Virus record (IMG/VR): IMGVR_UViG_3300030111_000059
Length of the DNA: 6,757 nucleotides
Reading direction: 5' to 3' (one strand)
Origin: a virus
Position numbers and translations under genes: made by a program. This document shows, one piece after another, positions 1 to 6,757 of the stretch (position 1 is the stretch's first letter; each line of letters opens with the position of its first letter). Below the pieces are notes generated by a model. The model was not told where the DNA came from. It searched no databases and saw only the letters and a program-made list of their open reading frames with translations.

Positions 1-90
1 AAATCCTCACCCGTTCGTTTTTTTCGCGATGAAGCGAGCGAAAAAAGCCGCTGCGGCTTGCGGTTTGCCCCCTGACCAAGGGAGAAATCA
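1..90. repeat. Direct terminal repeat, copy 1 (identical to 6668..6757); marks circular closure of a 6,667-bp genome
   Basis: Base-by-base comparison: aaatcctcacccgttcgtttttttcgcgatgaagcgagcgaaaaaagccgctgcggcttgcggtttgccccctgaccaagggagaaatca occurs at 1..90 and again at 6668..6757, exactly at the two window ends. Confidence 0.95.
17..48. other. Hairpin-forming inverted repeat GTTTTTTTCGC / GCGAAAAAAGC with a 10-nt loop, in the intergenic region (second copy at 6684..6715 inside the terminal repeat)
   Basis: Pairing read directly: 17-27 pairs with 38-48, about 11 bp plus one G-T, loop gatgaagcga. It is non-coding. Such hairpins in the ssDNA form are typical of inovirus intergenic regions. Confidence 0.5.
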
Positions 91-200: not shown

Positions 201-572
201 TCAACTGCCTTGATACATGTGGGAATTCGGAGACGATGCCGCAACCTTGCTGGCCAAGGTCGATAACCAGACCTGCTGTTCTAGCTGATCGGGTGTGACT
301 GGACCACCAGACAGACGCCTAACCGCAATCTCACGGGCCTTGTCCTGGAGCATACAAACAATGGCAGTGTTCTCAGCCTCCGTAAGCAGAACGGCACCGG
401 GAACGAGCTTTGACGTAACGTTACCTTGCGCTAACTTCTGGCGCTCACGATAGGCGCGCTGTTTCTCGGCTGGCGTCATGGCTTTACCAGTCGAAGGGCG
501 ACCACGGCGCTTGCGCTGGGGAGGCTCATCCAGGGGGAGTGGATGAGTAGCTTTATCTGTCGGGTCGATCAT
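201..572 (-). CDS. 123-aa basic protein, putative DNA-binding or replication-regulatory protein (function unproven)
   Basis: ATG at 572 overlaps the stop of the upstream gene as ATGA (569-572), suggesting translational coupling. The N-terminal basic stretch is QRKRRGRPSTGKAMTPAEKQRAYRERQK. From memory this resembles the RGxP...MTxxEKQ...R basic motif of small plasmid copy-control regulators (CopB/RepA2, RepB-RCR_reg-like); this needs an HMM check. It is the last gene before the intergenic region. Confidence 0.6.
   Translation of the reverse strand: MIDPTDKATHPLPLDEPPQRKRRGRPSTGKAMTPAEKQRAYRERQKLAQGNVTSKLVPGAVLLTEAENTAIVCMLQDKAREIAVRRLSGGPVTPDQLEQQVWLSTLASKVAASSPNSHMYQGS
415..424. promoter_or_regulatory. 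Third copy of the 10-bp palindrome GTAACGTTAC (operator-like), inside the 123-aa gene
   Basis: Exact 11-mer GTAACGTTACC shared with 840..850 and 903..913. It lies in codons Q-G-N-V-T-S of the 123-aa ORF. Confidence 0.45.
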
Positions 573-808
573 GCTGCCGCTTCCTGAGCTTTCCAGATTG
601 CAACGTCTACATCATCGAAGTCCTCGATTTGCAAAAGCCCAGCCGCATACAGGGCTTGTGCGAAACCGCGCAGCCGGTCCGGCTTTAGCTCGCCGTTGAT
701 CGCGTCGTCTAGGTAGGTTTCGAGCACTTCATTTAACAGGCTCGTTCTGTCACGGCCTAGAAAGTGGCACAAATCGTTAAAAGCGGGGAGCAGGTTAAGG
801 CGTTTCAT
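569..808 (-). CDS. 79-aa ribbon-helix-helix (CopG/Arc-like) DNA-binding protein with an acidic C-terminal tail
   Basis: ATG at 808 is preceded by AAGGAG with a 6-nt spacer. The N-terminus MKRLNLLPAFNDLCHFLGRDRTSLLNEVLETYL fits the RHH pattern: a short beta strand, helix, G-x-x-R-S/T-x-L-L/I-x-E-x-L-x-x-Y-L. The C-terminus IEDFDDVDVAIWKAQEAAA is acidic. The 173-aa version in the ORF track is an upstream extension that runs through the promoter/operator region and into zot. Confidence 0.7.
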   Translation of the reverse strand: MKRLNLLPAFNDLCHFLGRDRTSLLNEVLETYLDDAINGELKPDRLRGFAQALYAAGLLQIEDFDDVDVAIWKAQEAAA

Positions 809-833
809 CACAGTCTCCTTGGTTCGTGCCCTA

Positions 834-863
834 ATTATAGTAACGTTACCGCAAATGTGATAA
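834..863 (-). promoter_or_regulatory. Candidate sigma70-type promoter for the 79-aa/123-aa operon
   Basis: Read on the minus strand: -35-like TTATCA (863..858), an 18-nt spacer, then a perfect -10 TATAAT (839..834). The predicted start is about 19 nt upstream of the ATG, so the leader contains the AAGGAG RBS. The palindrome GTAACGTTAC (840..849) directly abuts the -10. Confidence 0.5.
836..857. promoter_or_regulatory. 22-bp operator-like repeat, proximal copy (core palindrome GTAACGTTAC at 840..849)
   Basis: tatagtaacgttaccgcaaatg matches 899..920 (tatagtaacgttaccataaatg) at 20 of 22 positions. The core is a perfect 10-bp palindrome. Confidence 0.6.
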
Positions 864-898
864 TTGCATGTTGCTATCAGAGCAGAGCGTGCAATAGA

Positions 899-920
899 TA
901 TAGTAACGTTACCATAAATG
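899..920. promoter_or_regulatory. 22-bp operator-like repeat, distal copy (core palindrome at 903..912), overlapping the zot stop codon
   Basis: Same repeat as 836..857. The core centres are 63 bp apart. The TAA inside GGTAACG (911..909 on the minus strand) is the zot stop codon. Confidence 0.6.
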
Positions 921-2186
921 GCCGGGCTTGCCTGATCCGACCACGACAATATCCGAAGTAGAGGAACCCTCGAACTGGGCACCTCTGCCCATGCGATCAG
1001 CTCCAAGGCTATCGACGGTGCGTCGATCGACACGGCCACGGATGTCGATAGGCCACGATCTGGCGACGTAGGCGACGGATTGTTTCTCAAGCAAGAGACC
1101 GTATCCGGTCCTGGTCACAGTCCAGCCCAGGGCCTGAATCTCACTCACGCGAAAGCGTTCCTTGATGTGATAGGACGAGTCGAGCAGTTCGATCTCGCCC
1201 ATCAGTTCGCGTCCAGGCTTGTCGCTGTCCATGATGGCGGTCGCCCTGATCTGATACTGCTGGGCCATCTTGTCCAGGTAGTCGATTGGCGGCGGCAGGG
1301 CTTCGGCAGTCTGATCGGCATGCTCAGGTTTGGCAGTGACCAGGGCAGATGCCTGCATGCTCGGTGGCTCTGGATTGGTGAGGCCGGCCGATGGCTGCGG
1401 CCGCTCGACGGTGACAGCTTGCGACGGCTGAGTCGAGGCAACCGCGCCACCCGTGCCGGTGAAAAATCCATACAGGTGATACACGGCATAGAAAGCGCCG
1501 ACGAAGACGAACGGCACGCCCAGCGAGAGCAGCTTGGAGTTCTTGAGCACGTTGGTGCGCTCGGTCTGGTAGACGCTACCCTTGACCGTTTCGCGTCGGT
1601 GACTGGAGTAGAGGCCAAAGTAGTTCGTTTCATAGGAACGCACGCCAGAGCCGATCTTGACAAACTTTCCCTTAGCCTGTTTCTGCCACTGCTCCCACTT
1701 GTACTGGTTGGGGCGTCCGATGGCCTGAAGCTTGAGGAAGTAGATGATGTCCTCGATCCGGCTGCGGATGATCTTGTGAACGTCATCGCGGTCCTGACCC
1801 ATGATGACGATTTCGAGCCCTCGGTGACGATGCTCGGTCCAGAACTTCTGCTGATTGAGCGGGAGCTTATAGTTCCCGCTGGGAAAGTAGTCCTGGATTT
1901 CATCCCAAACAATCATCGCGTTGTCAGGCGTCTTGTCGGCGAACTCGTTCTTAACGCGCTCAACGTCACCGGCTGCGCCATCCTGCTCGGCAGGCTCGAC
2001 GTAGATCAGCAGCATGCGGACGTATTCGACAGGCTCGTCCAGCAGCTCGGCGAACTTCTCCCAGTTGATGCCACGAATATTGGTAACAACCTGACGTCCA
2101 GCTTTCAGGGCGGGCAGGATGTGAAAGACGCACGCCTCGTAGCTTTTGCCAGCACCTGGAAGACCTTCATGAAAGTGAATGGCCAT
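909..2186 (-). CDS. Zot-like / pI-type inovirus assembly ATPase (425 aa)
   Basis: The N-terminus MAIHFHEGLPGAGKSYEA contains Walker A (GAGKS). MIVWDEIQ is a Walker B-like motif. There is one central TM segment, LLSLGVPFVFVGAFYAVYHLYGFF, then a P/A/Q-rich linker and a C-terminal domain of about 130 aa. ATG at 2186 is preceded by GGAGG in the end of the upstream gene. The position after the pIII- and pVI-like genes is canonical. Confidence 0.92.
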   Translation of the reverse strand: MAIHFHEGLPGAGKSYEACVFHILPALKAGRQVVTNIRGINWEKFAELLDEPVEYVRMLLIYVEPAEQDGAAGDVERVKNEFADKTPDNAMIVWDEIQDYFPSGNYKLPLNQQKFWTEHRHRGLEIVIMGQDRDDVHKIIRSRIEDIIYFLKLQAIGRPNQYKWEQWQKQAKGKFVKIGSGVRSYETNYFGLYSSHRRETVKGSVYQTERTNVLKNSKLLSLGVPFVFVGAFYAVYHLYGFFTGTGGAVASTQPSQAVTVERPQPSAGLTNPEPPSMQASALVTAKPEHADQTAEALPPPIDYLDKMAQQYQIRATAIMDSDKPGRELMGEIELLDSSYHIKERFRVSEIQALGWTVTRTGYGLLLEKQSVAYVARSWPIDIRGRVDRRTVDSLGADRMGRGAQFEGSSTSDIVVVGSGKPGHLW

Positions 2187-2491: not shown

Positions 2492-3871
2492 TCAGAGCAG
2501 AGCAATGCGGAATGCGAAGAAGCCAGCAGCGGCCAGAATGACGGCCTTGATGGCATTCCATGGGATATCGCCGTTGCATAGCTGATCAATGTCGATATCA
2601 AAGACCCAAACCGAGACCGACCAGCGAGGACAGGAGCCCGTAGCACGGAACGTCAGAAAGCTGCTGGTCTGCGACGCAACTGGGGTCTGCTGGACCTTGC
2701 CGACGAATTCGGTCAGCACGGATCCAAACGTATCGCCGGTCGGCGTGTACCAGTCCTGACCCTCTCCCCCGCCACCAGCGCCGCAATCGTCACCGGTGCA
2801 ATCACCTACACCGTCACCGTCACTGTCCGGGTTGCCCTTACCGGGGCAGGCTTCACCCTTGCAAGTGGACGATTCGCCGGTCTTGTTCCCGTTGGCGTCC
2901 TCGGTAGTGGTCTTGGTGGTCTCAGCCTTGGTAGTCGTGCAGTTGTTCACGCCGACACACTTGGTCACGGTCGCGATGTCTTTCTTGGTCGTCTTAACCG
3001 AGCCATCCGCAAGAATCTCTTTCGTAACCTCGGTGCGAATGTCGATCCCGTTTTTCTCGGGCAGCTTGGTCGTACAGAACTCGGAACCGTCCTCGAGAGT
3101 GGCGCAAATCTGGCCTTCAACTTCGTCGGTCTTGCTCGAAGTGCAAACCTCTTTCGAACCATCGGCAGCATAGATGCACGGCTGCTCATCCTTCAGGTTC
3201 TGCGGCTCAGGCGTCTCAATAGTGTCTTCAGGCACCAGATCGGAACCAGTGGGAGCGCCCTGCGGGCATTCAACGCCTGTATATCTACCAGTGCCCCGGC
3301 AAAAGTAGTTGCCATTGACGCGCGCAACACAGTCTCGTCGGGTAGTCTCAACAGCACAACCGGAAAAGCAGGCCCTCATACCGGGAAAGAACATGGGCTT
3401 TCCGTTAATCTCCCTGGTCATGCCAAACCCGTCATCGGACGTGCCAGACTTAGACCAGTTCATATCTTGGCCTTCCTTGTCCAAACATGCGTTGTCAGGC
3501 GCAGAGCAGGAGCCGATTGACGGATCATATTCGGTGCCTTCAGGACAAGACGTACCGCGACGATCAACGTAATACTGTTTCTTTTCAACGAGGTTGACCG
3601 AACCGTTAAACAACGGGCAAGAATCGACAGAATATTGAGAGGCCCAGCATTGTTGATATACGCACTGGGCTCTAATTTCGGAGACATCTTCAGAACGGAG
3701 ATATTTTAAATTCGGAGTTGATCCGGCAGAGCAGGCAGCAGCCTTATCAGGATATTGATTTAAGCTGCTGTTATTAAAAATCCAGTAATACGTTTGGGCA
3801 CTGGCAGGAGCATGCCAAAACAGCACTGGAATTAAGAAGCTGAAAAACCAACGATGATGGCGACCGCGCAT
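2492..3871 (-). CDS. 459-aa pIII-like adsorption / minor coat protein
   Basis: N-terminal signal peptide MRGRHHRWFFSFLIPVLFWHAPASA followed by QTYY (A-x-A site). The remaining sequence has 24 Cys. A D/G-rich linker (NPDSDGDGVGDCTGDDCGAGGGGEG) is present. The C-terminal hydrophobic anchor is AIKAVILAAAGFFAFRIALL. This architecture and the position after the major coat gene are typical of inovirus pIII. Confidence 0.8.
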   Translation of the reverse strand: MRGRHHRWFFSFLIPVLFWHAPASAQTYYWIFNNSSLNQYPDKAAACSAGSTPNLKYLRSEDVSEIRAQCVYQQCWASQYSVDSCPLFNGSVNLVEKKQYYVDRRGTSCPEGTEYDPSIGSCSAPDNACLDKEGQDMNWSKSGTSDDGFGMTREINGKPMFFPGMRACFSGCAVETTRRDCVARVNGNYFCRGTGRYTGVECPQGAPTGSDLVPEDTIETPEPQNLKDEQPCIYAADGSKEVCTSSKTDEVEGQICATLEDGSEFCTTKLPEKNGIDIRTEVTKEILADGSVKTTKKDIATVTKCVGVNNCTTTKAETTKTTTEDANGNKTGESSTCKGEACPGKGNPDSDGDGVGDCTGDDCGAGGGGEGQDWYTPTGDTFGSVLTEFVGKVQQTPVASQTSSFLTFRATGSCPRWSVSVWVFDIDIDQLCNGDIPWNAIKAVILAAAGFFAFRIALL

Positions 3872-3966: not shown

Positions 3967-4101
3967 TTAGCGGAACCAGCCGATAACCTTGTTAAAGCCC
4001 CACTTGGCAACGCCCGGCAGGACCTTGATTGCGGCAATCGCGGTGATGGCGGCGACGATGGTTTCAGCGGATACAGCAGCGGTGATGGCGGAAAAATCCA
4101 T
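3967..4101 (-). CDS. Major coat protein, 44 aa, no leader peptide (MDFSAITAAVSAETIVAAITAIAAIKVLPGVAKWGFNKVIGWFR)
   Basis: Translated by hand; not in the ORF track. ATG at 4101 is preceded by GAGGAG with a 9-nt spacer. The layout is an acidic N-terminus (D2, E13), a hydrophobic core, and a basic/aromatic C-terminus (K33, W34, K38, W42, R44). That is the classic inovirus coat design. It lies immediately upstream of the pIII-like gene. Confidence 0.8.
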   Translation of the reverse strand: MDFSAITAAVSAETIVAAITAIAAIKVLPGVAKWGFNKVIGWFR

Positions 4102-4380: not shown

Positions 4381-4475
4381 GGCCGCAGCTCACGACGAAC
4401 GAAGGACAAAGCAACGACACCACCAGCAAGGGTGGCGAATAGCCAGAACGTGGCCGAGAGGCTGGCGGCAAACAT
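4377..4475 (-). CDS. 32-aa hydrophobic micro-ORF (MFAASLSATFWLFATLAGGVVALSFVRRELRP), pVII/pIX-like by size and position
   Basis: Translated by hand; not in the ORF track. The start overlaps the upstream stop as TGATG (4477..4473) and the stop overlaps the downstream start as ATGA (4380..4377). It has a single TM-like helix with a basic end. Ff pVII and pIX are 33 and 32 aa and sit between gene V and gene VIII. Confidence 0.55.
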   Translation of the reverse strand: MFAASLSATFWLFATLAGGVVALSFVRRELRP

Positions 4476-4807
4476 CAGGCGGTAGCCGGCTGCTGTTGAC
4501 GGGATACGGCGAACAGGTTCACGTTTTGAACCTTGGTCAAGCCGGTAAGCGTCAGGGTCGCTTTACCCTGCGCACCAGGACGGCTTCCAAAGTCCAAATC
4601 GAAGAGCGCGGGCAACTTGGCGTCGCGCAAGCGGTCAATCAGCGCACAATCGGCGCTAACCTTGGTGGGTTTGAATCCGAAACTACCGGCGGTATCTTCG
4701 CGGTAGTCGTTGACGTACCAGACGGAAAGACCCTTGCGAATTTCGCCGGTTTTTTCGTCGGGCATTTCCCAGCTATCACACGAAAGGATAAGGGCGCGCT
4801 CTGCCAT
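4475..4807 (-). CDS. 110-aa putative ssDNA-binding protein (gene V analogue; call is mainly positional)
   Basis: I prefer the ATG at 4807, preceded by GAGG with a 9-nt spacer, over the TTG at 4822 used in the ORF track. It is the first gene of the structural block after rep. The size and soluble, strand-rich-looking sequence are consistent with this call. I saw no diagnostic motif by eye. Confidence 0.55.
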   Translation of the reverse strand: MAERALILSCDSWEMPDEKTGEIRKGLSVWYVNDYREDTAGSFGFKPTKVSADCALIDRLRDAKLPALFDLDFGSRPGAQGKATLTLTGLTKVQNVNLFAVSRQQQPATA

Positions 4808-4842
4808 GACAAGAAACCTCAATTAATGGTCGGGGCACCTGA

Positions 4843-4862
4843 ACGTCAAGTGCACTTGACGT
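4843..4862. promoter_or_regulatory. Perfect 20-bp palindrome ACGTCAAGTGCACTTGACGT, candidate operator in the divergent gap between the HTH gene and the structural operon
   Basis: I checked the reverse complement by hand and it is identical. Each half carries a TTGACG (-35-like) hexamer facing outward. It lies in the 85-bp gap between the minus-strand ATG (4807) and the plus-strand ATG (4893). Confidence 0.6.
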
Positions 4863-4892: not shown

Positions 4893-5270
4893 ATGCACGA
4901 AAAGAGCCCACCAACCACCGTCGAGTGGTTGGATTTGGTGAAGGAGCGTTGCGGGGTCCGGAGTGACTACAAACTGGCCGAGCTACTGGGCGTCACACGC
5001 CAAGCAATCAGCCAGCAGAGAGCGGGAAAGCAGTGCATGTCGATCATCTCAGCAGTGCGAGTTGCAGAGGCGCTGAGGCTGCCTTCGCAGGCCGTGATTG
5101 CTGGCGTGATGTACTACGGAGACCGGGAGACGAATCGCGGATTTTGGGCGGATCGATGGGCCCGTGCATGGCCAGCAGTTCAAAGACGAATCGGGCAACC
5201 GCCTCATGGCCACCAGTCTCAGCCAATCGGAGCAGAACAGCGCGCGCCTGATATGGCTGGCGAAGGATGA
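4893..5270 (+). CDS. XRE/Cro-CI-type helix-turn-helix transcriptional regulator (125 aa), candidate phage repressor
   Basis: ATG at 4893 is preceded by GGGAG with a 5-nt spacer. SDYKLAELLGVTRQAISQQRAGK is a classic HTH (helix, G-V-T turn, recognition helix QAISQ). It is the only plus-strand gene. Its 3' 227 nt overlap the 3' end of rep. Confidence 0.72.
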   Translation: MHEKSPPTTVEWLDLVKERCGVRSDYKLAELLGVTRQAISQQRAGKQCMSIISAVRVAEALRLPSQAVIAGVMYYGDRETNRGFWADRWARAWPAVQRRIGQPPHGHQSQPIGAEQRAPDMAGEG

Positions 5271-6414
5271 TCCGCCACTGATCGCGAGTGACCTGCGAGA
5301 CGCGCAGAGCGGTGGCAATCTCCTCCTGGTTGATTTCCTCATCGGTCTGGTCCGCGATCTGGAAAAGCGCCTTAAGGCCGGGCGTCCACCGAAGCTGGTT
5401 ATAGCCCTTGAATGCCGCCGAGAACTCGGCAAACAGAGCGCCGGAACGGGCATCGCCTTCGGCGTAAGAGCGCAGCAAATCGAACGGCGTGCGACCCTTG
5501 CCAGTCCCGCGCTTGGAGTTCGCCTTCGTTACTTCGCTGGCCGCTTCCCATCGGGGTTCGGTGCCCCACTTGGCGACATACTCCGCAGCCGACTCGGCCT
5601 GCTGAATGTGCACGCCACGCTCCCTGGACGGAGCCGGAAGACCAGCAGCAACCGACGAGGTTTTCCAGACGGCAAACAGCAGGCGATGAAGCATGGCGCG
5701 CTGGCGAACCGTCAGCGGCTCGGGGAAAAGCCAGAGTTCGTGGAAGTGTGGGTGCCAGCCATTGGCGTTACCGTGCGTTACCTCTAAGGCCCGGATCGAA
5801 CCCACCACGTCGAACAACTCGCGAAGGTGCTTGTAGTCGCGATGCTCGCGCATTTTCTTGGTCGCTACACGGAGCTTGCCCATAAGCTCGGAAAGCACAT
5901 CCATGCGCGCATGGCGCACAGTGAGCGTGACCATTTCGACCCCGCCACCGGCTGAAATGTGCGTGTCGATTGCCTGACGCACTTCCAGTTTGCGACGTTC
6001 CGAGATTTTGGCGGAGCAGATCGGGCAGGACCAGACAGAGGAGCAGGTCTGGAGCCCCGAGTAGTGAGCCTTGCCGGTGGCGGAGTCCTTCAGGATGCCG
6101 ACATAGCCGTCCTTGTTCGTGAGCGTCCGAATGCAGTGCCTGACGCGATGATCTGGCAGGAGCCGCCGAGCGGCGTCCTGGAGCGAAAAACGCGCTTCGC
6201 GGGCCTGTTCTGGCGTGAACTCGGGTACAAACTCACGACGCTTGTTGTCGAACGTAAACCGTTGAATTTCCCCGGTTTTCTGGTCGACAACCTCCTTAAT
6301 TCTGGCCGCGAATTTCGCAGTAGTAACAAGGGCGCCTCCGGCGGCCCGCGCTTCGCTTGCGGGCCCGCCCGGATGCGCCTTTCGCGCCTGGGCGCTTTCT
6401 GTTATAGAATCCAC
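5044..6414 (-). CDS. Rolling-circle replication initiator, HUH endonuclease superfamily (456 aa)
   Basis: HUH motif HPHFHELW (5731..5754). Candidate catalytic Tyr motif AAEYVAKW (Y279 at 5578..5580). Cys cluster CSSVWSCPICSAK (C124-C133 at 6016..6045). The motif order resembles pC194/pUB110/pIJ101-type Rep proteins. GTG start at 6414 is preceded by GAGG with a 7-nt spacer. It is the first gene after the intergenic region, as in Ff gene II. Confidence 0.85.
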   Translation of the reverse strand: MDSITESAQARKAHPGGPASEARAAGGALVTTAKFAARIKEVVDQKTGEIQRFTFDNKRREFVPEFTPEQAREARFSLQDAARRLLPDHRVRHCIRTLTNKDGYVGILKDSATGKAHYSGLQTCSSVWSCPICSAKISERRKLEVRQAIDTHISAGGGVEMVTLTVRHARMDVLSELMGKLRVATKKMREHRDYKHLRELFDVVGSIRALEVTHGNANGWHPHFHELWLFPEPLTVRQRAMLHRLLFAVWKTSSVAAGLPAPSRERGVHIQQAESAAEYVAKWGTEPRWEAASEVTKANSKRGTGKGRTPFDLLRSYAEGDARSGALFAEFSAAFKGYNQLRWTPGLKALFQIADQTDEEINQEEIATALRVSQVTRDQWRIILRQPYQARAVLLRLAETGGHEAVARFVFELLAMHGPIDPPKIRDSSPGLRSTSRQQSRPAKAASAPLQLALLR

Positions 6415-6506: not shown

Positions 6507-6535
6507 ATCTTAACGGCTCCGTGTCGCCTATCCAA
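6507..6535 (-). promoter_or_regulatory. Weak candidate rep promoter
   Basis: Minus-strand reading: TTGGAT (6535..6530), a 17-nt spacer, then TAAGAT (6512..6507). The match to consensus is only moderate, at 3/6 and 4/6. Confidence 0.25.
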
Positions 6536-6538
6536 CAC

Positions 6539-6555
6539 CAAGGGCTTTGCCCTTG
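6539..6555. other. Small hairpin CAAGGGC-ttt-GCCCTTG
   Basis: 7-bp perfect stem with a 3-nt loop, read directly; intergenic. Confidence 0.4.
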
Positions 6556-6576
6556 TCATCCCACTCTTCGCCAGAG

Positions 6577-6619
6577 GGTCAGAGGGCAGGGGAGAAAAGC
6601 TTTCCCCTGCCCTATGACC
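6577..6619. other. Strongest hairpin of the intergenic region (about 18 bp); candidate packaging signal or origin stem-loop
   Basis: AGGGCAGGGGAGA (6583..6595) pairs with TTTCCCCTGCCCT (6601..6613), giving 13 bp with one G-T and loop aaagc. After one mismatch it is extended by GGTCA (6577..6581) pairing with TGACC (6615..6619). Confidence 0.5.
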
Positions 6620-6667: not shown

Positions 6668-6757
6668 AAATCCTCACCCGTTCGTTTTTTTCGCGATGAA
6701 GCGAGCGAAAAAAGCCGCTGCGGCTTGCGGTTTGCCCCCTGACCAAGGGAGAAATCA
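6668..6757. repeat. Direct terminal repeat, copy 2 (identical to 1..90)
   Basis: See copy 1; exact 90/90 identity. Confidence 0.95.

Follow-up and report, generated by a model that had tools for sequence, protein, structure and literature searches.

A recurrent palindrome predicted to be the operator of an accessory operon downstream of zot in a filamentous phage genome

The accessory operon and its palindromes

The DNA analyzed here, IMG/VR virus record IMGVR_UViG_3300030111_000059 (6,757 nt; hereafter the window, whose positions serve as coordinates throughout), is judged from its sequence to be a filamentous phage (inovirus) genome. Bases 1–90 are identical to 6668–6757, and this exact 90-bp terminal overlap means that the window represents a circular genome of 6,667 bp. 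Our subject is a 10-bp palindrome, GTAACGTTAC, that occurs at and within a two-gene accessory operon following zot on the same strand. The zot gene (gene I-like assembly ATPase; 909–2186, minus strand; Pfam Zot, E = 1.5e-31) is followed by a gene for a 79-amino-acid (79-aa) protein (569–808, minus strand), which is the first in the operon and has the ribosome-binding site AAGGAG at 815–820, and then by a 123-aa gene (201–572, minus strand), which matches phrog_10506 and other PHROGs of unknown function. The stop codon of the 79-aa gene overlaps the start codon of the 123-aa gene (ATGA), and a sequence scan places a terminator-like hairpin with a T-run (41–59, minus strand) at the end of the operon.

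Exact matching confirmed the three copies of GTAACGTTAC(C) reported in the first-pass annotation, at 415–424(5), 840–849(50), and 903–912(13), and a search allowing up to two mismatches found no additional copy in the window. The proximal copy (840–849) sits in the spacer of a predicted promoter, flush with a –10 hexamer (TATAAT, 834–839, minus strand) that is kept in relatives. A consensus scan pairs this hexamer with a –35 hexamer, TTATCA (858–863, minus strand), across an 18-nt spacer; relatives read TTAGnn at the latter position, which is poorly conserved. The distal copy (903–912) is centered 63 bp upstream of the proximal one and contains the zot stop codon (TAA, 909–911). The third copy (415–424) is intragenic: it lies 425 bp downstream of the proximal copy within the 123-aa gene, directly after the codons for a basic helix, and encodes G50 (2 nt)-N51-V52-T53 (2 nt). 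The contact with TATAAT, the 63-bp spacing, the zot stop codon, and the coding position had been described in the first pass, and each is borne out. The 22-bp direct repeats described around the proximal and distal copies are likewise present (836–857 vs 899–920, 20/22 identical), within a repeat whose full extent is 33 nt (825–857 vs 888–920, 27/33 or 82% identical). The regulatory region (825–920) comprises this repeat, both operators, and the block between them, and reads CCATTTATG-GTAACGTTAC-TATATCTATTGCACGCTCTGCTCTGATAGCAACATGCAATTATCACATTTGCG-GTAACGTTAC-TATAATTAGGGCACGAACCAAGGAGACTGTGATG on the minus strand. Between the operators lies the block GATAGCAACATGCAATTA (861–878, minus strand), paired with CTAT (~891–894). 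A second promoter at the distal palindrome was considered and rejected: its TATATC has no usable –35 hexamer, and the consensus scan did not report a promoter there. A MerR-type promoter was also rejected, as the spacer is 18 nt (not 19–20 nt) and the dyad is flush with the –10 hexamer rather than centered; Pfam searches found no MerR-family protein among the window proteins.

In this genome, GTAACGTTAC is the sole 10- or 11-mer with at least three copies and the sole recurring 10-bp palindrome. When the window was shuffled 2,000 times with dinucleotide composition preserved, some 10-bp palindrome occurred at least three times in 3 shuffles (p ~0.0015), and some 10-mer on either strand did so in 697. 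Because thrice-recurring 10-mers are this common in shuffles, the within-window significance rests on the palindromic nature of the repeat. These statistics are moderate, and the decisive evidence is conservation across genomes. As an example of a mutated version of GTAACGTTAC we give GTCACGTGAC.

Conservation in relatives

We gathered 101 loci from IMG/VR and GTDB genomes through homologues of the N terminus of the 123-aa protein. GTAACGTTAC is present in 58 of the 101 (167 copies in 946 kb), and perfect copies are found in dozens of related phages, where the first-pass annotation had suggested looking for them. Among 53 nonredundant loci we counted 151 perfect, 34 one-mismatch, and 145 two-mismatch copies, compared with a ratio of 1:30:405 expected by chance. 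In chromosomal stretches of 10–18 kb (L084 and L085), every copy is clustered at the phage gene. To lessen ascertainment bias, we also scanned IMG/VR for the bare DNA pattern GTAACGTTACTATAAT, a test that is independent of any protein. The scan returned 62 contigs, of which 49 carry a gene for the same N-terminal domain (N-domain). In most of these, the gene begins on the same strand, 42–330 nt downstream. The remaining 13 contigs are unrelated, contain a single copy each, and have a guanine-plus-cytosine content of 28–43%. We conclude that the GTAACGTTAC sites form a genuine cis-regulatory element, one whose DNA sequence is very strongly selected.

The arrangement of the sites is conserved as well. 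Counted from the ATG of the 123-aa-family gene, the canonical copies in relatives stand at –111 and –48. The proximal position is invariant (37/37 nonredundant relatives), with TATAAT next to it in 35/37. In the window and a few others, the two operators stand 229 bp farther out (–340 and –277) because the 79-aa gene is inserted between the promoter and the 123-aa-family gene. Helical phasing of the two upstream copies, as first proposed, does not hold in general: the 63-bp spacing recurs in 29/37 nonredundant loci, but the whole block is homologous and other lineages space the sites by 25, 26, 30, or 38 bp. Across the 63-bp block in the 29 relatives, mean column identity is 100% within the palindromes and 85% elsewhere. 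The consensus between the operators in these loci is TATCTAT-N14-GATAGcAACATgCAATTAg, also given as TATCTAT-N14-GATAGCAACATGCAATTAG; in the window (861–894, minus strand) this element is an inverted CTAT...ATAG whose spacer is variable in sequence and fixed in length. It may bind a second factor or function like an UP element.

Conserved sites, with the proximal one in the –35/–10 spacer and auxiliary ones on both sides, agree with the multi-operator array that had been proposed, and the layout would be compatible with cooperative binding or looping. The suggested link to the end of the morphogenesis operon does not generalize: zot ends at or in the distal site in the window's clade only, and in most relatives the upstream neighbor is a different short open reading frame (ORF) or zot lies on the other strand.

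The copy within the coding sequence shows constraint on the DNA itself: the 21 intragenic copies of the relatives all have the frame xGT-AAC-GTT-ACx, at six or more positions (+67, +130 to +148, +280, +301, +343, and +448) in proteins that differ in architecture. The residue before Asn is only ever Gly, Arg, or Ser, the residues with NGT codons, and synonymous codons of neighboring conserved residues vary freely; GTT accounts for 32% of the Val codons in the window genome. Most intragenic copies fall where the conserved N-domain gives way to a C-terminal part that is highly variable.

Many relatives have an extra perfect copy 274–307 nt past the gene, in the context ATTAAAC-GTAACGTTAC-CCATTATGCGAAG or ATTAAAC-GTAACGTTAC-CCATTATGCGAA (e.g., L007, 3790–3840; L002, 6000–6042; and many other loci). 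Prophage contigs end here, at ATTATGCGAA, and have a complete dif (TTCGCATAATsTATATTATGTTAAAT) at the other end; we therefore identify this site as a dif-like attP. The XerD arm and the central part of this attP share bases with the palindrome. Read from the opposite strand, the palindrome lies in the spacer of a promoter-like element, TTCGCA-17-TTTAAT, upstream of a convergent ~90-aa gene. These placements suggest that in relatives the regulator may also act on XerCD integration or on the ~90-aa gene. A search of the window for a dif-like site found XerC-arm matches never better than two mismatches, none with an adjacent XerD arm.

A candidate binding protein

To find the protein that goes with the sites, we compiled a phyletic profile of 43 loci, each at least 6 kb long with at least two palindromes, by tblastn with the window proteins. 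The N-domain of the 123-aa protein was found in 43/43 loci, as compared with 2/43 for the 79-aa protein, 3/43 for the window-type helix-turn-helix (HTH) protein, 5/43 for the window-type Rep, and 4/43 for the window-type C-domain of the 123-aa protein. Because the other window proteins are rare in these loci, the N-domain is the only shared phage-encoded candidate. It accompanies the palindromes in 43/43 loci and in 49/49 inoviral contigs. Rep or the HTH repressor was rejected as the binder, as palindrome-bearing phages carry unrelated Rep and HTH proteins.

The N-domain occupies residues 1–55 of the 123-aa protein (408–572, minus strand), and a search of 1.84 billion sequences returned 212 cluster representatives of it at 50% identity. 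It stands nearly always at the extreme N terminus, and the C-terminal domains that follow it differ widely. Family members come from inoviruses of Pseudomonas, Stutzerimonas, and Halopseudomonas, from Ralstonia phages, and from small Aeromonas plasmids. G24-R25-P26 (495–503) is invariant and lies in a basic context; at least 90% of sequences have R23, and A35..Y41-R42 is invariant in a basic helix (residues 34–50; 423–473, minus strand). The AlphaFold2 model has residues 1–33 disordered or of low confidence, then helix 34–50, the NVT linker, and a confidently predicted C-terminal helical hairpin (residues 65–112).

The type of site varies with the basic helix. AEKQRAYRER.. goes with GTAACGTTAC in all of ~50 loci. 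In Pseudomonas aeruginosa prophages such as phage 42-1, the helix AERARRYRANKK goes with GTGAC-N0–3-GTCAC (11/13 loci), and in the Pseudomonas nitroreducens group, AEKQAAYRKRRA goes with GTAACGCGTTAC, present as two copies 33 bp apart (9/9 loci). AERQR[LR]YRE is paired with GTTACGTAAC or GTTACGTTAC, and AEKQARYRARQA with GTAAC-N1-GTTAC, encoded as VTVT. In the group with GTGAC half-sites, Q38 is replaced by A and A40 by R in the basic helix. Contacts of Gln with adenine and of Arg with guanine are common, and a change from Gln38/Ala40 to Ala38/Arg40 together with a half-site change from A to G would, as we infer it, fit such contacts. GTAACGTTAC is found with at least five unrelated C-domains and one helix type, which makes the N-domain the plausible determinant of specificity. 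We conclude that the operator sites associate exclusively with the N-domain family and that the site type varies with the basic helix.

The layout itself recurs with other site types. In phage 42-1, sites of the GTGAC type are found at the promoter, within the gene, and just past the stop codon (GTGACGTCAC), and its intragenic near-site, CACGCGTCAC, encodes S-R-V-T. Aeromonas plasmids have GT(G/A)AC-N1-GTTAC sites upstream and directly after the helix, the latter encoded as (N/T)VTVT. Since small Aeromonas plasmids carry both, the domain and the in-frame operator are not restricted to phages. GTGAC/GTCAC-N1 repeats also occur at the promoter in A. veronii pHS28 (L143, 1390–1600) and in an A. 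hydrophila plasmid (L144, 2440–2630).

We predict that GTAACGTTAC is the operator of the 79-aa/123-aa accessory operon after zot and that the 123-aa protein is its likely, autoregulatory binder, a reading to which we give a probability of roughly 0.6. The binder would be a dimer of the 123-aa protein, one per palindrome, contacting DNA through the N-domain, with an AT-hook-like R-G-R-P followed by the basic helix AEKQRAYRERQK, each helix reading one GTAAC half-site. Occupation of the proximal site would block RNA polymerase or open-complex formation and so produce negative autoregulation of both genes. The sites at 903–912 and 415–424 would serve as auxiliary operators for cooperative binding or looping, or alternatively as roadblocks to zot read-through and to elongation. 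The binding itself, the direction of control, and any looping are inferences from the sequence.

Several points weigh against this reading. The promoter is a consensus match with a weakly conserved –35 hexamer. Most loci were found through the N-domain itself, an ascertainment bias that the GTAACGTTACTATAAT scan removes in part. The N-domain matches no characterized DNA-binding family in Pfam, NCBIfam, or a PDB profile search, and the first 33 residues of the 123-aa protein are predicted with low confidence. Covariation does not count as independent evidence of contact when the elements are adjacent and co-inherited, and the site groups occur in different host species, so that a host factor could in principle give the same pattern. 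Finally, some phages with an AERQRLYRERQK-type helix and other promoter operators keep GTAACGTTAC in the attP region, and the attP copy is therefore at least not strictly tied to helix type.

That last observation also favors a different explanation, in which the GT(A/G)AC palindromes are bound by a protein conserved in the hosts, for instance a regulator or a nucleoid protein of the Pseudomonas group, that the phages exploit for control of the operon and, in relatives, of attP as well. The site types do sort partly by host (P. aeruginosa, the P. nitroreducens group, and Stutzerimonas or other Pseudomonas). We nevertheless consider this unlikely, given that the sites always occur with an N-domain gene and track its basic helix, that the copies in chromosomal stretches are all at the phage gene, and that small Aeromonas plasmids repeat the arrangement with site variants of their own. 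The palindromes could instead be mainly recombination or module-boundary sequences, either part of a XerCD attP or patches of identity, with a secondary role in transcription. A copy inside a dif-like site at one prophage end with a complete dif at the other, intragenic copies at the N-domain/C-domain junction, and a promoter module found in differing genomic contexts speak for such a view; it is made quite improbable by a window phage that has three perfect copies yet no dif-like site, by the invariant placement flush with the –10 hexamer, and by the promoter-like element in which the attP-side copy itself lies. As for a repeat that arose by chance, or a target of restriction or methylation (AACGTT, which is contained in the palindrome core, or GTNAC twice) without a regulatory role, the thrice-recurring 10-mers in shuffles are offset by the rarity there of thrice-recurring palindromes, by the excess of perfect over one-mismatch copies in relatives, and by site positions that are fixed relative to promoter and gene. 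Restriction sites are normally depleted in phages, the opposite of the conservation seen here. We regard this explanation as effectively refuted.

The first-pass annotation had favored the 79-aa protein as a ribbon-helix-helix (RHH) repressor bound to the palindromes, which would leave the 123-aa protein as a partner or cargo. Its gene is indeed the first downstream of the operators, its N terminus (KRLNLL, then two helices) can be read as a beta-alpha-alpha unit, and NCBIfam gives a very weak, sub-threshold RelB-like match (E = 0.062; 13.5 bits vs a cutoff of 50 bits). However, the gene is absent from 41 of the 43 loci with identical operators, and the protein has only eight homologues among 5.8 billion proteins and no match in Pfam or PHROG searches. 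AlphaFold2 predicts a four-helix bundle, for which Foldseek found no RHH structure among its PDB matches (best E-value 0.13). The slot of the 79-aa gene is filled in other phages by small genes (62–83 aa) of at least five further, unrelated kinds (L016, L027, L031, L045–L048, and L009/L068), and where it holds a single gene, the stop codon of that gene overlaps the downstream ATG. An RHH role for the 79-aa protein is accordingly very unlikely in our estimate. We read the slot between the promoter and the 123-aa-family gene as a probable insertion point for cargo ("moron") genes under operator control, and the 79-aa gene as a cargo gene that would be expressed under that control rather than as an operator-binding protein. 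A promoter with such an exchangeable slot for small cargo probably governs accessory or moron expression.

Likeness to known systems and other features of the genome

To our knowledge, the regulation of filamentous phages beyond Ff, CTXphi, and Pf4 is poorly understood. The analysis yields a cis-element together with a candidate family for its cognate regulator and a predicted code of recognition, which would pair Gln38/Ala40 with GTAAC and Ala38/Arg40 with GTGAC. As a kind of element, a promoter operator array is ordinary; the putative DNA-binding domain family that would serve it is uncharacterized and has some unusual features. Like lac O1/O2/O3, gal OE/OI, and plasmid CopG at Pcr, the array has a dyad site over the core promoter of its own operon and extra identical sites tens to hundreds of base pairs away, one of them in coding sequence. 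Unlike in those systems, the proposed binder has neither an HTH nor an RHH fold, and the ORF of the putative regulator itself contains one of the operators, conserved in position right behind the codons of the predicted DNA-binding helix.

The sites resemble those of bZIP proteins, of which the Pap1/Yap and PAR types recognize TTAC half-sites and CREB recognizes TGAC. A single basic helix per monomer, followed by a coiled coil in many N-domain family members, and abutting 4–5-bp half-sites (GTTAC or GTGAC) in palindromes are shared features, and relatives use GTTACGTAAC and GTGACGTCAC. Across the family the sites take the forms GTAAC.GTTAC, GTTAC.GTAAC, GTGAC(N0–3)GTCAC, and GTAAC-GC-GTTAC, and the resemblance to bZIP lies in the site only. 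When aligned by hhalign with manually entered bZIP sequences, the helix fell in the bZIP register, with Y41-R42 on the bZIP (C/S/F)-R position, at a probability of 1.5–2.6%, which is not significant. A PDB profile search with the N-domain found no bZIP, and we rejected membership on these two results. The half-sites of the window group also face the opposite way (GTAAC.GTTAC), and the C-domain of the window protein is a helical hairpin with no zipper. The likeness is a resemblance, not membership; should binding by the 123-aa protein prove real, bacteria would have in it a compact counterpart of basic-helix (bZIP-like) recognition.

Two further comparisons concern the first part of the N-domain and its annotation. 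As in AT-hooks (HMGA; bacterial WhiB7), an invariant G-R-P is flanked by K/R (KRxRGRPxTG), and AT-rich sequence (ATTTAyG ... TATAAT) surrounds the operators. The motif here differs in being joined to a putative sequence-specific basic helix, and Pfam AT_hook matches 1 of 36 family members (E = 0.003). The homologue in Pseudomonas phage 42-1 (OR621020) is labeled "replication regulatory protein RepB" in GenBank. The label agrees with a small basic protein in a rolling-circle replicon beside noncoding control regions, but the operators are on the protein's own promoter and not on the rep promoter or origin. Pfam RepB-RCR_reg was rejected, with no match at E ≤ 10 for the 42-1 protein, at E ≤ 1 for the 36 members, or at E ≤ 0.1 for the window protein, and a lead to pUB6060/RepB led nowhere. 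The paper describing phage 42-1 analyzes neither the gene nor the repeats, and integrase-less Pseudomonas inoviruses have recently been described without analysis of their small genes (PMC10675462).

The accessory Xer sites cer and psi work with ArgR and PepA. By comparison, a putative protein-binding palindrome here overlaps the XerD-arm and central region in relatives, which as prophages have dif on one side and a dif-like hybrid site on the other, as is the case for XerCD-exploiting integrative phages (CTXphi, phiRSS-type, and XacF1; PMC4471427). The window phage differs from these in having no dif-like site, and the palindrome of the relatives is also in a promoter-like element. A site within the XerCD attP of relatives suggests a simple gate by which a phage protein might control integration that depends on host recombinases. 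In its broadest form, our interpretation would make the N-domain an unrecognized sequence-specific DNA-binding family in filamentous phages and small plasmids, diversified in specificity through the half-site base (GTAAC vs GTGAC), spacing, and orientation, with an operator embedded in its own ORF (NVT, RVT, or VTVT) and, in integrative relatives, in the XerD-arm and central region of the dif-like attP, where occupancy by the regulator would couple expression of the accessory operon to XerCD integration or excision. As a whole we hold this to be speculative and unlikely.

The searches for relatedness were otherwise negative. The 79-aa and 123-aa proteins gave no informative family in Pfam, NCBIfam, PHROGs, or PADLOC, the PHROGs of unknown function being matched by the N-domain only, and Foldseek found nothing significant in PDB for the AlphaFold2 models of either. 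The PDB profile search with the N-domain returned Get2 peptides only (E ~0.06). Literature searches for GTAACGTTAC retrieved only unrelated oligonucleotides, and those for a "replication regulatory protein" of Pseudomonas filamentous phages or for inovirus AT-hook regulators found nothing. Among GenBank phages, the metagenomic "blackswan219-6" is the nearest (80% identity, in rep and ssb only).

The remaining genes were assigned from the ORF table and family searches. On the minus strand lie a g6-like gene (2190–2483), a g3-like gene (2492–3871), an Inovirus_capsid protein (3967–4101), an ssb-like gene (4475–4822), and a Rep_1-type initiator (5044–6414); an HTH repressor-like gene (4893–5270) lies on the plus strand. 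The HTH and rep ORFs overlap antisense by 227 nt, and the PHROG match of the HTH protein is restricted to residues 8–91, so the listed length of one of the two is probably too great. A perfect 20-bp palindrome, ACGTCAAGTGCACTTGACGT (4843–4862), in the divergent gap between the ssb-like and HTH genes is probably the operator of the HTH protein, which would make it a second, separate regulatory dyad. Within rep are two CGTTACC half-sites 10 bp apart (5766–5782), and the genome has five CGTTACC in total as compared with ~0.8 expected. The pair is a possible weak extra target tying the regulator to rep; it is kept in very close relatives only and is uninformative. An Rfam scan of the whole window gave no match, including to a noncoding segment (6534–6619) with a 17-bp-stem hairpin (6577–6619). 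This segment is 94% identical to P. aeruginosa phage 42-1 (OR621020, 849–935), with which the genome otherwise shares almost no DNA similarity, and is a candidate origin or packaging signal.

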